Part shown: positions 14,628 through 20,558 of the stretch, in pieces | Layout: every line of letters starts with the position of its first letter | Position numbering within the stretch: position 1 is the stretch's first letter | DNA from: an uncultured Elusimicrobia bacterium | Lineage (GTDB): Bacteria > Elusimicrobiota > Elusimicrobia > 2-01-FULL-59-12 | Length of the DNA stretch: 64,000 nucleotides | Reading direction: 5' to 3' | Assembly (NCBI GenBank): GCA_963702895.1 | Contig: OY969767.1 | Location: 1,376,001-1,440,000, forward strand | The notes under the pieces: model-generated | Database searches by the model: none | What the model was told of the DNA's origin: nothing | The model's input: only the letters and a program-made list of their open reading frames with translations | Translations under genes and position numbers: made by a program

Positions 14628-15559
14628 AAGTGTTCCAACGCCCTGAGCTTCGCGCTGCGGGACCGGGGGTTCGTCTGGACCTCCGTCTCGCTGGGGCGCA
14701 CGGGCTTTCTTTGCAAAAGTCTGCCCCAAGGCTTCCGGTGACACACACATTGAGGAAACCTCGGCGGGCATACACAGCCCTTGACCGCGGCTTGAAAGGC
14801 GGTCTTGACGCGACGGTCCTCCAAAGAGTGGAACGAGATCACCGCCGCTCGCCCCCCGGGAGCCAAATGCTGTTCAAGGCCGTCCAGAGCGGATTGCAGA
14901 TTGGCGAGTTCGCCGTTCACCGCGATACGCAGGGCCTGGAAGCACCGGGTGGCAGGATCCATTCGTTGCAGCGGCGTTGACGTGGTCTTGCGGATGAGCT
15001 CCGCCACCTTCCAAGCGTCATTGCTCAGCGTATGATTTCGGATCGCCTGCGTCAGCGCACGCGCGATCTTTCGCGCCTGGGGTTCTTCCCCATACTCGCG
15101 GAACAACCGCGCGAGCTCCTCTTCGGAGGAATGCGTCAAGACTTGCCAGGCGGTCTGTGTCAAAGACTGGCTCATCCGCATGTCCAGCGGCCCCGGACGC
15201 AGGAAACTAAAGCCCCGGTCCGAGTCCTGGAGCTGCATGGAGGAGAGCCCCAAGTCCAGAAGGATCCCGTCGGCTGTCTCACGACCCCTCTGAGACAGAA
15301 CAGACGGGAACTGGGCATAACTGGCCGCGACCCCTTCGAAGCGTTCGCCAAAACGGGCAAGACGCGTGGTGGCATGGTCCAGGGCCTCGGTGTCCCATTC
15401 AAGGCCCAAGACCTTCATACCCGGGTAGCGCTCCAAGAGCCTTTCGGAATGCCCCCCCAGACCCAACGTCCCATCGATCACCAACGCGGGACCCGGAAAC
15501 GAAAAAAGCTCAACGACCTCCTCCGCCAGGACGGGGACGTGCTCGTGGACCACGCTCAC
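14624..15559 (-). CDS. rsmH: 16S rRNA m4C1402 methyltransferase
   Basis: HVPVL, DGTLGLGGHS, DLGLSSMQL, ISFHSLEDR, NPRSRSAKLR. Confidence 0.96.
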   Translation of the reverse strand: MSVVHEHVPVLAEEVVELFSFPGPALVIDGTLGLGGHSERLLERYPGMKVLGLEWDTEALDHATTRLARFGERFEGVAASYAQFPSVLSQRGRETADGILLDLGLSSMQLQDSDRGFSFLRPGPLDMRMSQSLTQTAWQVLTHSSEEELARLFREYGEEPQARKIARALTQAIRNHTLSNDAWKVAELIRKTTSTPLQRMDPATRCFQALRIAVNGELANLQSALDGLEQHLAPGGRAAVISFHSLEDRRVKTAFQAAVKGCVCPPRFPQCVCHRKPWGRLLQRKPVRPSETEVQTNPRSRSAKLRALEHL

Positions 15560-16005
15560 AGCGCCAGTTGCGGTGCGACTTTTTCGAAACTGACTCGCGC
15601 CACTTTGCTGTAACGGCTCCAGTGTTCCCGGGACCACAATTCGACGTGTCGTAAAACCCCCAAAATGACCACCTGGCGCTTCAGGCCGGCATAGTCCTTT
15701 AAATGCTGAGGGATCAGAATCCGGCCTTGCGCATCGATCTCGGCTTCACAGGCCGCGGAAAGCAGCACCCGCTTAAACGCGCGCTCCTGCGCTTTGTCCT
15801 TCAAGGCAAGCGCGTCCAGTTTCGCGGCCAGGTGGTCCCAATATTTTATCGGAAAAAGAAACAAACACCGCTCCAGGCCCTGGGTCAGCACGTAATCGGC
15901 GCCATGGGATTTTTCGCGGAAATGCGACGGAAGAAAAAGCCTGTTTTTGCCGTCCAGGCCGTGCTCGTACTGCCCGAGGTAACGATAGACTCTACTTTCC
16001 ACCAC
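15556..16005 (-). CDS. mraZ: Transcriptional regulator MraZ
   Basis: GQYEHGLDGKNRL and DAQGRILIP repeats; first gene of dcw; start codon uncertain. Confidence 0.93.
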   Translation of the reverse strand: MVESRVYRYLGQYEHGLDGKNRLFLPSHFREKSHGADYVLTQGLERCLFLFPIKYWDHLAAKLDALALKDKAQERAFKRVLLSAACEAEIDAQGRILIPQHLKDYAGLKRQVVILGVLRHVELWSREHWSRYSKVARVSFEKVAPQLAL

Positions 16006-16093: not shown

Positions 16094-16128
16094 AGAAAGG
16101 CCTCCCACCGTGGAGGGTGGAAGGCCTT
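16094..16128 (-). terminator. Probable terminator hairpin downstream of rnpB
   Basis: AAGGCCTTCCACC...GGTGGGAGGCCTT stem with a short T run. Confidence 0.5.
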
Positions 16129-16137
16129 AAGGAAAGT

Positions 16138-16970
16138 GAAAGCTGCATTCTATACACCGAATTCTGTACGGCAACGGCAAACGTCGTAAATGGTAAATGG
16201 TGAAGGAGGAATGGTGAAGAGTTCGATAGAACATAACGATTCACCATTTTCTATTTACTATTTACGCCGTCTGCCGTCACCGTCGAGCGCCATTCTTCTG
16301 GGCGACGACCTCGAGTGCGGACGAGCCGGGACCAGCTCTCCTCGAACCCCGGGAACGGCAAACGTCGAAAATAGAAAATGGAAAATAGCACTTTCTCATC
16401 TCTCTATTTTCGATTCTCTATTTTCGCCGTATGCCGTTCCCGGCATCTTGCTCCGGATGGGGTTTGCCTTGCTCCCTTCGTTACCTCAGGGACGGTGAGC
16501 TCTTACCTCGCCATTTCACCCTTACCCGTCACGACCAACTCAGGGTTCAGAGCTCAGAACTCAGAGAGGGCGATGGTTTTATAAGAATCATCCTTATCTC
16601 TGAGCTCTGAGTCCTGAATTCTGAGCTGGCCGTTCCAGGCGGTGTATTTTCTGTGGCACTTTCCGTTGAGAACGGCAAACGTCGTAAATAGTAAATGGTG
16701 AATCGTGAACAGTATTTGCGCATGCTCCTACTCACTATTTTCTATTTACTATTTACGCCGTCTGCCGTTCCCCCCCTGGCTTGCGCCAGGCATCCTGCCC
16801 ATGGAGTTCGGACTTTCCTCCCACCTCCGCTCATTCTTGCGCTTCGCGCGGCGATGAGCTACGGTGGGCAAGCCCCCCCTATAAAAAAGGGGCCTGCCCG
16901 CCATAGCTCTGCCGCAGCGCGTTAGCGCTAAGAGCGGGCGGAGGCGGGCGGCGCTCCGAATGCAGCTTTC
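16138..16970 (-). ncRNA. rnpB: RNase P RNA (type A-like) with five large hairpin insertions
   Basis: P1 from GAAAGCTGCATTC/GAATGCAGCTTTC. Conserved blocks in order: GAGGAAAGTCCGAACTC, GAAAGTGCCACAGAAA, AGGGTGAAA...GGTAAGAGC, GGCAAACCCCATCCGGAGCAAG, AGAAGAATG, ACAGAATTCGGTGTAT. Follows the zinc-ribbon gene. Confidence 0.93.
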
Positions 16971-16990: not shown

Positions 16991-17707
16991 TTAAGCAGCC
17001 GGGACTTCTTCGAGATAAACGATGCGCGAGCAGGACTCGCAGCTGACGATCTTATGGCCGCGGCGCAATTCAACGATCAGGTTTTGTGAGACCTTCATGT
17101 GGCAGCCGGAACATTGCCCTTTGAGAATCGGGACCACCGTGGCCCCGCGCTTGCCGTTGCGCAGCGTGGAATACTGGTGGGCCAGGGGCTTCGCGAGGGA
17201 GGCCAGCGCCTGCGCGCGCTCGGCTTGCTTGGCCGCGATGGTTTTTTCGAGCTCTTTGCCCCTGGCTTCCCATTCCAAAATCTGTTGCTGGAGCGTTGTT
17301 TCGTGACCTTGGGAGTCCGCCTCTTTTTGCTTCCAGACTTTGGTCGCCTGGTCGATCTGCTCCATCAGCTGCAAAATTTGGTCTTCGAGCGACGATTTGA
17401 CCTGCTTGGCTTTATCAATCTCGCCAAGCAAGGCTTTATAGGCTTCGTTGGTTTTGATGGCATTCAGGTCCGTCGAATGCTTACGAATGGCCGTTTCCTG
17501 GACGTCCAGGTCCAGCTCCTTCTGCTTCTTCGTGAGCTGAAACTGGTTCAGCTCTTTCTTCGCAGACTCCAGCGCCGTTTTCTCTGCCTGGATCTCCCCC
17601 TTTAAGCCGGCGACCCTGCCAGGGACTGACGCCAGTTCATTTTGAAGCCGGTCCAACTCGAGATCCCTTTCCTGTAGGGACAAGAGCAACTTGATGTCGT
17701 CTTTCAT
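16991..17707 (-). CDS. Coiled-coil protein with C4 zinc ribbon (DUF164-like)
   Basis: Long coiled coil, then CSGCHM...CESCSRI. Confidence 0.88.
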   Translation of the reverse strand: MKDDIKLLLSLQERDLELDRLQNELASVPGRVAGLKGEIQAEKTALESAKKELNQFQLTKKQKELDLDVQETAIRKHSTDLNAIKTNEAYKALLGEIDKAKQVKSSLEDQILQLMEQIDQATKVWKQKEADSQGHETTLQQQILEWEARGKELEKTIAAKQAERAQALASLAKPLAHQYSTLRNGKRGATVVPILKGQCSGCHMKVSQNLIVELRRGHKIVSCESCSRIVYLEEVPAA

Positions 17708-18894: not shown

Positions 18895-18969
18895 TGGTGG
18901 GCGCTACAGGATTCGAACCTGTGACCCCTGTCGTGTGAGGACAGTGCTCTACCGCTGAGCTAAGCACCC
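18895..18969 (-). tRNA. tRNA-Val(CAC)
   Basis: GGGTGCTTAGCTCAGCGGTAGAGCACTGTCCT-CAC-ACGACAGGGGTCACAGGTTCGAATCCTGTAGCGCCCACCA cloverleaf with CCA encoded. Confidence 0.95.
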
Positions 18970-20484: not shown

Positions 20485-20558
20485 TGGGCCCGGAAGGACT
20501 TGAACCTTCAACCCTCCAGTTATGAGCCGGACGCTCTAACCGATTGAGCTACGGGCCC
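20485..20558 (-). tRNA. tRNA with CAT anticodon, probably Ile2 (lysidine)
   Basis: GGGCCCGTAGCTCAATCGGTTAGAGCGTCCGGCT-CAT-AACTGGAGGGTTGAAGGTTCAAGTCCTTCCGGGCCCA; no CCA encoded. Ile2 versus Met is inferred from the acceptor stem. Confidence 0.9.

Follow-up and report, generated by a model that had tools for sequence, protein, structure and literature searches.

RNase P RNA is a textbook ribozyme with a narrow size range in bacteria, and the closest precedent for the lengthened gene described here comes from heterocyst-forming cyanobacteria, inside whose rnpB (the gene of this RNA) Vioque reportedly found, in 1997, heptamers of the short tandemly repeated repetitive (STRR) type. We will focus on the rnpB gene of an uncultured Elusimicrobia bacterium, which lies on a stretch of 64,000 nucleotides (contig OY969767.1, positions 1,376,001 to 1,440,000; the window hereafter, whose own numbering is used unless genome positions are announced) and which carries five long hairpin inserts on an apparently ordinary class A core. 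The cyanobacterial genes reportedly share with this one the lengthening of a peripheral helix of a class A RNA by tandem 7-nt units and their complements, as well as the occurrence in close relatives of unrelated repeats at the same place (here genomes G000 and G003 on one side and G002 on the other). They differ in that only one site, P12, is extended and modestly so, whereas the Elusimicrobia gene is extended at five sites by 513 extra nt, belongs to another phylum, bears the marks of copying between its own sites and is linked to cassettes carrying S23p genes.

Other described systems resemble this locus in part. In the passages of PMC4990558 devoted to the intervening sequences (IVSs) of the 23S rRNA of Leptospira, Coxiella and Brucella, an extended stem-loop replaces the small loop at a helix tip of an essential stable RNA, and those IVSs that bear an open reading frame (ORF) enclose an S23p gene in that stem-loop. 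The Elusimicrobia rnpB likewise has extended stem-loops in place of helix tips, and the hairpin families concerned enclose S23p/PF05635 genes elsewhere; the differences are that the host is rnpB, that the 16S and 23S genes of the same genome are free of IVSs, that the copies in rnpB contain no ORF, and that excision by RNase III, the hallmark of an IVS, is here a possible fate of the hairpins. The heptamer repeats of Xanthomonas and Nostoc (Rehm et al. 2015, PMC4692102) are, in the parts of that paper that bear on the comparison, also dispersed 7-nt arrays in inverted pairs able to form stem-loops, of unknown function, but they are G-rich, intergenic and discussed as quadruplex formers, and no link to a stable RNA or to S23p is made there. 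Outside bacteria, the nuclear RNase P RNA (RPR) of the eukaryote Candida glabrata also invites comparison. Its insertions are not known to be repeat-family hairpins. With its 1149 nt it is called the "largest RPR described" in the relevant portion of PMC3001073 and likewise consists of a conserved core inflated by large peripheral insertions. Finally, the RNase P RNAs of the candidate phyla radiation (Lui et al. 2021, PMC8172020) are also of class A, under-scored by standard models and extended in helices such as P15 ("large extensions of helices"), but the sections concerned do not tie these extensions to repeat families or to copying within the gene. A literature search on rnpB in Elusimicrobia, on repeats or hairpins in RNase P RNA and on intervening-sequence proteins with tandem repeats returned no description of such a case among the matches listed. 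Repeat hairpins that lengthen a peripheral rnpB helix are already known; new here are the five sites with a 2.2-fold size, the phylum, the connection with S23p cassettes and the copying from site to site inside one gene.

The gene and its ends are the following:

16138-16970, minus strand: rnpB, bacterial class A RNase P RNA, 833 nt from P1 to P1 (RF00010, single copy, covariation, family alignment)
16958-16970, minus strand: P1 5' strand (GAAAGCUGCAUUC), pairing with 16138-16150 in the minimum free energy (MFE) fold and supported by covariation
16138-16150, minus strand: P1 3' strand (GAAUGCAGCUUUC), complement of the 5' strand (MFE fold, covariation)

A sequence-only reading of this DNA had recognized all the conserved rnpB blocks, in order, spread over 833 nt, and they do line up with those of relatives. 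The RF00010 model (RNaseP_bact_a) matches window positions 16247-16888 on the minus strand with 123.2 bits (E 3.1e-37, for a gathering score of 100), and the same gene is found with 117.2 bits in the search of the whole genome. The match stops at 16888 and 16247, within the P3 and P19 inserts, as insertions of about 100 nt near its termini are more than the model can bridge; the true ends were set by the pairing of P1 (16958-16970 with 16138-16150), which gives 833 nt. The genome is a single closed contig of 2,724,539 bases, 98% complete. The search for a second rnpB or for HARP, which that reading had called for, yielded neither: in the 2.72-Mb genome, the only other RF00010 match is a sub-threshold one of 19.6 bits over 73 nt, and the PIN_5/HARP profile reaches at best 20 bits for a cut-off of 27, in a search that recovered the HARP-positive control genomes. 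The RNase P protein subunit gene rnpA is encoded at genome positions 86123-86446 (95.9 bits). As the gene is single-copy, rnpA is present, HARP was not found, the core is conserved and its helices covary, the view of 16138-16970 as a working and essential rnpB, and not a decayed duplicate, is supported, and we infer that the RNA is active.

The core elements that can be placed with precision are these:

16820-16830, minus strand: 3' strand of the P3 base, pairing with 16938-16948; 10 of 11 pairs change on both sides
16807-16811, minus strand: core of the P4 5' strand (CCGAA), pairing with 16157-16161 (UUCGG); 5 of 5 pairs kept in nine sequences, with one double change
16308-16310, minus strand: GGU between the P16 3' strand and the P15 3' strand, read from the sequence; GG kept in 9 of 9 aligned sequences

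Eight rnpB genes of the same family, with their ends defined from P1 to P1, were aligned with that of the window. In this alignment of nine sequences the core blocks are invariant and the extra sequence of the window falls in gaps. A hand-written structure comprising P1, P2, the P3 base, the P4 pseudoknot, P8, P13 and P14 was counted on it: 95.9% of the cells are paired, against 39-46% with slid partners, changes on both sides occur in 30 of the 50 pairs, and none of 500 shuffles reaches any of the observed measures. Helix by helix, the paired cells amount to 97% in P1, 100% in P2, 90.5% in the P3 base and 100% in P4, with both-side changes in 7 of 13 pairs, 4 pairs, 10 of 11 and 1 of 5, respectively. 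The P4 pseudoknot builds the catalytic centre of the enzyme. In the specificity domain (P10-P14), model positions 104-213 are aligned at high posterior probability, the blocks are invariant in the family, and P13 and P14 covary. The GGU at 16308-16310 occupies the position of the motif that, as established for E. coli M1 RNA, binds the tRNA 3'-CCA in class A RNAs. P18, as read from the sequence and the alignment, is absent in this lineage. Every structural trait of class A that was looked for is therefore present (the RF00010 score, the closing helices P1-P2-P3 with the P4 pseudoknot, the specificity domain and the GGU), and the catalytic and specificity cores appear to be those of an ordinary class A RNA.

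What sets this RNA apart is found at the periphery:

16831-16937, minus strand: P3 insert, a GC-rich (64%), non-periodic hairpin of about 50 pairs (fold, periodicity, blastn, alignment)
16671-16769, minus strand: P9 insert, a heptamer hairpin of the ACGGCAKACGGCG plus AAAUAG family, with the element proper at 16672-16768, 97 nt, 38 pairs (fold, periodicity)
16531-16633, minus strand: P12 insert, a hairpin of NCUCAGA (CAGAGCU) heptamers (fold, periodicity)
16354-16438, minus strand: J15/16 insert, a heptamer hairpin of the P9/P19 family (fold, orthologues in relatives)
16173-16277, minus strand: P19 insert, a heptamer hairpin of the P9 and J15/16 family, with the element proper at 16174-16277, 104 nt, 40 pairs (fold, periodicity)

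The five intervals initially proposed as inserts (P3, P9, P12, P15/16 and P19) each fold alone into a single hairpin, with energies of -88.4, -41.8, -59.6, -37.5 and -39.6 kcal/mol, and all five hairpins are recovered, together with P1 and the P3 stem, in the MFE fold of the whole 833-nt RNA (-436.3 kcal/mol, z -17.8 relative to 20 shuffles). Their stems contain 25-50 pairs and are interrupted by single mismatches only. The sites were placed by alignment with compact relatives (G009, 373 nt), in which the assignments to P3, P9, P12 and P19 hold. Two boundaries had to be redrawn: the interval 16824-16944 does contain the P3 insert but includes 7 bp of P3 itself, and the insert attributed to the P15/16 region does lie there but sits in a J15/16 hairpin, in neither P15 nor P16 proper. 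There, it caps a short stem, CCGGG (16439-16443) with CCCGG (16349-16353), in the 5' strand of the P15-P16 internal loop, a place where several relatives also have a hairpin. Once the 513 nt of the five inserts are removed, 320 of the 833 nt are left, as had been estimated. The copies in rnpB measure 83-107 nt and carry no gene. The bases of the elements form GC-rich clamps (ACGGCAKACGGCG / CGACGUUUGCCGU) around an AU-rich interior. Inspection of the five junctions revealed no consistent target-site duplication, the only repeat being a TGCCGT at the 3' junction of P19.

These inserts belong to three types, and the original sorting into a family of three, one CAGAGCT-type heptamer hairpin and a third type stood up to measurement. 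Autocorrelation at period 7 reaches 0.48-0.69 in both arms of the P9, P12, J15/16 and P19 inserts, for about 0.25 at other periods. The P3 insert, of a different and non-periodic type, gives no more than 0.23-0.32; extension of a helix by tandem heptamers is found in four of the five. The P9, J15/16 and P19 inserts have common arms, ACGGCA(G/U)ACGGCG...CGACGUUUGCCGU, which are 92-97% identical over 28-37 nt. Their shared 3'-arm 14-mer, AACGGCAAACGTCG, occurs exactly three times in the 2.72-Mb genome, always in rnpB, and looser relatives of the arms were found by blastn at about a dozen other loci. The arms of the P12 insert match genome positions 2180426-2180458 with 97% identity over 33 nt. 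Such dispersed relatives, along with other heptamer hairpins at the same tips in related genomes, argue for the colonisation of rnpB by dispersed hairpin elements that had been suggested from the letters. For the P3 insert, blastn found no relatives in the genome, the best non-self match being of 21 nt (E 0.015).

The comparison with other Elusimicrobia gives these inserts a history. In a sample of 151 genomes of the phylum, 147 have an RF00010 match, and against the 833 nt with an intact core seen here, the longest match in the 146 others is of 520 nt (G004). Measured from P1 to P1 within the family, rnpB has 833 nt in the window, 651 in G007, 598 in G004, 566 in G008, 525 in G006, 525 in G010, 469 in G003, 440 in G005 and 373 in G009, and the extra length consists mostly of heptamer-type hairpins at P3, P12 and P19. 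Insert sites and families vary from genome to genome. The P3 insert is lacking in six of the eight aligned relatives, while G004 and G007 have other hairpins there, and in G022, of another family in the same class, a single element recurs at least four times (at P3, at P12, in the P15 region and at P19) up to the point where the contig stops. Within the genus, G000 and G003 carry AAAATAG units at J15/16, G002 carries unrelated CCTCACR units at the same site, and G001 has a short plain hairpin there, as it does at P12 and P19; unrelated repeats, or none, thus occur at one site in close relatives, as in the STRR case. G010, G002 and G022 also have two extra small hairpins in P13, a helix left untouched in the window.

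The J15/16 copy is found at the same site in G003 and in L101, L124, L132 and L138, and since it is common to these relatives it is old; the orthologues are 72-92% identical. The last four are metagenome rnpB genes found with an exact 18-nt pattern of the 3' arm, which retrieved 46 loci in all, the others being mostly apparent chance matches, except L104 (and apparently also L108), where a copy of the family lies outside rnpB. Two comparisons point to copying between helix tips. The P19 and J15/16 copies of the L101 gene agree at all of 69 nt (100%), flanking stem included, so that the copied unit looks like the replacement of a helix. In the window, the P9 and P19 copies are 80% identical, whereas the P9 copy is only 58-59% like those of L101 and L124, which are themselves 87% alike. 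Because the P19 copy of L101 matches the J15/16 copy of its own gene and because the P9 copy of the window is closer to P19 than to the P9 copies of relatives, copying of hairpins from tip to tip within a gene has very probably occurred on two or more independent occasions. Duplicative insertion, gene conversion or something RNA-mediated could be the route. We hold this within-gene copying, the identity of the gene, its single-copy status, the positions of the inserts and their family relations each with high confidence.

Four of the five inserts are further connected to a class of gene-bearing elements. The genome contains 10 genes of PF05635, a family of four-helix-bundle proteins (S23p, "23S rRNA intervening-sequence protein"), all above the cut-off, and 6 of them are flanked by inverted arrays of 7-8-nt tandem units that exceed the 99th percentile of 400 random intervals (4 of the 400 exceed it); in nine related genomes, flanking inverted repeats pass the same threshold for 15 of 29 such genes. 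The cassette at genome positions 811545-812362 has ACGGCAWACGGCG plus AAAATAG arms, as in the P9, J15/16 and P19 inserts (blastn identities of 91-94% over 34-35 nt, E 4e-8 to 3e-6), and the one at 1170443-1171077 consists of CAGAGCT units, those of the P12 insert, in arrays that adjoin an S23p gene (1170686-1170982). The same kind of sharing is seen in G008, in which the P12 insert of rnpB and an S23p cassette of that genome have units in common, and G004 has one S23p cassette with ACGGCAGACGGCG...CGTCGTTTGC ends. The copies in rnpB lack the gene that defines an ORF-bearing IVS, but their relatives at 811545-812362 and 1170443-1171077 do enclose PF05635 genes. Judged by their shared arms and units, four of the five rnpB inserts appear to be gene-less members of an element class whose full-size copies enclose S23p/PF05635 genes. 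Since the same families enclose such genes elsewhere in the genome, the inserts can be viewed as gene-less hairpins of the IVS type, and the analogy with rRNA intervening sequences drawn at the outset proves closer than expected.

The organization of these cassettes deserves description. That of 811545-812362 consists of an S23p gene on the minus strand (811665-811979) between one left and one right arm of the ACGGCAWACGGCG plus AAAATAG family, where the left arm is repeated directly three more times, at intervals of about 110 bp, on the right-arm side of the gene, and it is followed by a CAGAGCT-type hairpin at 812424-812480. The S23p gene at 1170686-1170982 is directly followed, over about 1171040-1171700, by a tandem array of five to six 120-bp units, each composed of a CAGAGCT heptamer hairpin and of a stretch resembling the 3' end of a tRNA gene. 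Gene-less AAAATAG hairpin copies also lie at L104:1050-1130 and L146:895-985, beside a small conserved lysine-rich gene on two other Elusimicrobia-type contigs, and the family thus extends beyond rnpB and beyond this genome.

In the explanation that we propose, the tips of helices P3, P9, P12 and P19, together with a lineage-specific J15/16 hairpin, would have been replaced by long hairpins on an ordinary class A core. Four of the five hairpins would be gene-less copies of the inverted tandem-heptamer elements of the genome; the J15/16 copy would have come first, and the P9 and P19 copies would have followed, copied tip to tip within the gene. All five sites would be exposed to the solvent, so that the core could fold and work as usual. 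The established structure of bacterial RNase P has the tips of these helices, and the loop that bears the J15/16 hairpin, on the outer face of the class A architecture. We consider this explanation as a whole rather probable, and would place it higher were it not for the fate of the hairpins. On that point, we lean slightly towards hairpins that mostly remain in the mature RNA as outward-pointing helix extensions; their trimming by RNase III comes behind as a possible outcome, and any other fate seems improbable. There are precedents for retention: cyanobacterial rnpB reportedly keeps its heptamer P12 extension (Vioque, 1997, again). The 1149-nt RNA of Candida glabrata, as presented in the portion of PMC3001073 mentioned above, is another.

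Several points weigh against this explanation, or against the retention of the hairpins that it favors. With 25-50 nearly continuous pairs, the stems compare in size with those that RNase III takes out of 23S rRNA, and the organism encodes RNase III (genome positions 868696-869073, 131 bits). Among 24 public RNA runs, the best shares only 0.07 of the sampled words with this DNA, a figure that helps neither retained nor excised hairpins, and contigs from runs X1, X2, X4 and X5, taken at 85% likeness, cover only core blocks, belong to the RNase P RNAs of other organisms and leave the inserts uncovered. The P3 insert, with neither relatives in the genome nor a heptamer period, is not accounted for by the proposed origin. 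L101 is a metagenome contig, and its identical copies could in principle be an assembly effect, though each has different flanks, which fit rnpB. Four of the six J15/16 orthologues were found by the exact 18-nt 3'-arm pattern, so that the conservation of this arm is in part a product of the search. Lastly, the concentration of hairpins in rnpB, which speaks for the explanation and exceeds chance, calls for a reservation. A uniform detector of long hairpins (24 or more ungapped pairs, wobble counted, with 85% or more of positions paired) found 191 in the genome, 4 of which lie in rnpB, that is, in 0.03% of the genome, for 0.058 expected by length (Poisson tail about 5e-7), but this expectation assumes random placement and ignores the preference of hairpins for non-coding DNA.

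The strongest competitor concerns the fate of the hairpins. They might be true IVSs, in which RNase III would cut each stem with no rejoining, leaving a mature RNA in as many as six pieces, which what remains of the GC-rich stem bases, along with tertiary contacts, would keep together. This is a possibility to be taken seriously, although we place it behind retention. The inserts fall in the same element class as ORF-bearing 23S IVSs, their stems are long and interrupted by single mismatches only, the organism encodes the nuclease, and GC-rich basal clamps around an AU-rich interior would suit the holding together of fragments. The M1 RNA of E. coli, too, can be reassembled from separate pieces and withstands breaks in its peripheral loops. 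Against this, the cyanobacterial RNAs extended by heptamers at P12 are reported to run as a single band. A six-piece assembly of a low-abundance RNA would moreover be costly, and no naturally fragmented RNase P RNA appears among the literature matches listed. As for the enzyme itself, the pertinent passages of PMC4990558 state that IVSs take the place of helix tips, that RNase III excises them and the rRNA pieces are not religated, and that in Coxiella RNase III removes a 28-bp stem from 23S rRNA.

A broader version of this idea would have S23p-type heptamer cassettes home to the helix tips of stable-RNA genes and RNase III excise them, which would make the present case a naturally fragmented RNase P RNA of up to six base-paired pieces; we find it doubtful. 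The targets, equally doubtful, would be 23S rRNA in other bacteria and, here, rnpB and the 3' flanks of tRNA genes. Of the 191 long hairpins, 8 are no more than 50 bp away from a tRNA gene, most of them immediately on its 3' side, for a random mean of 0.77 and a maximum of 4 in 200 trials, under a null that is not limited to intergenic DNA. These flanking hairpins may act as terminators or mark a preferred target. They lie 5-36 bp past the tRNA 3' end, for example at genome positions 1180884-1180988, 1653250-1653363, 1909496-1909633, 2184201-2184328 and 2271073-2271175. In the organism's own 16S and 23S genes (1551 and 3011 nt), no inverted repeat of at least 14 nt was found, and no insert was found in its tmRNA, which has 369 nt for a model of 374 positions.

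It is unlikely, in our view, that selection maintains the hairpins, be it all of them or just the old J15/16 one, as parts of the enzyme, for instance as docking sites for S23p-type proteins or other factors. The J15/16 copy is, to be sure, kept in six rnpB genes of at least two sub-lineages with its 21 basal pairs invariant, and none of its 27 pairs shows a compensatory change while native helices such as P14 vary freely, so that the conservation of structure and that of sequence are inseparable there. The strength of rnpB as a hairpin hot spot and the excess of hairpins just 3' of tRNA genes, whose transcripts are substrates of RNase P (8 of 191 for a random mean of 0.77), would also agree with selection. 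However, the invariance of the 3' arm is in part an artefact of the search pattern behind four of the six copies, G001, in the same genus, does without the element, G002 has an unrelated heptamer hairpin at the very same site, and G009 manages with an RNA of 373 nt. The sites and families also differ between genomes, which is the pattern reported for the cyanobacterial STRR.

We give still less credit to extensions grown in place, by replication slippage and strand switching in existing hairpins, with nothing copied in. Tandem units are prone to slippage, the number of heptamers differs between orthologous copies and the arms of one copy can differ by one unit; yet non-repetitive arm sequences of 13-37 nt are common to different helix tips and to loci hundreds of kb away, and a 69-nt copy is identical at two sites in L101. 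Slippage may thus resize the arrays without accounting for their origin. Finally, a decaying pseudogene or an assembly artefact, which the unusual length and the breaks of two same-genus draft assemblies inside or beside rnpB might bring to mind, is hardly credible for a single-copy gene accompanied by rnpA, in a genome in which HARP was not found, with its core blocks and pseudoknot intact and the same element at the same site in independent assemblies.

Under the explanation that we prefer, that of hairpin elements tolerated on an ordinary core, this 833-nt RNA would reveal five positions at which the enzyme tolerates additional peripheral RNA, and in what amount. It would also join three things that are poorly explained, namely the dispersed heptamer repeats, the very large S23p/PF05635 family and the intervening sequences of stable RNAs, and the tip-to-tip copying within one gene, twice independently, would provide a concrete handle on the movement of such elements. 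Whether natural fragmentation, known from some rRNAs, can also affect an essential ribozyme is a question that this case makes directly testable. On a practical level, the standard annotation by covariance models misplaces the ends of such genes and scores some of the relatives below threshold.

A metatranscriptome contig from run X1 (176 nt, depth 3.2) follows the window over 16441-16512 with no differences and over 16276-16351 with 4. At J15/16, 28 nt stand in place of the 89 of the window, and the contig ends exactly at the edge of the P19 insert. This contig is probably that of a close relative with a short J15/16 hairpin; it could also come from an insert-free strain or from a skip of the reverse transcriptase, and it hints at a presence/absence polymorphism.

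The surroundings of the gene are conserved as well. A CT398-like zinc-ribbon gene lies upstream (16991-17707) and mraZ-rsmH downstream, and the order of the zinc-ribbon gene, rnpB and mraZ (15556-16005) is kept in the window and in the loci of at least nine relatives. Only 20 nt separate the stop codon of the zinc-ribbon gene from rnpB in the window, and no promoter-like site was found between the two; therefore, rnpB may be transcribed from within this gene or together with it. Downstream, one further feature can be read from the sequence:

16099-16126, minus strand: terminator-like hairpin 3' of rnpB, with an 11-bp stem followed by UUUCU

A simple terminator scan did not call this hairpin because its T run is short, and relatives have a hairpin and a T run at the corresponding place after rnpB. 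In G003, of the same genus, an inverted array of GGCAGATC-type units of about 14 nt is found in the 150 nt directly before the 5' end of rnpB. Two ordinary tRNA genes also lie in the window on the minus strand, at 18898-18969 and 20485-20558 (69 and 72.5 bits).

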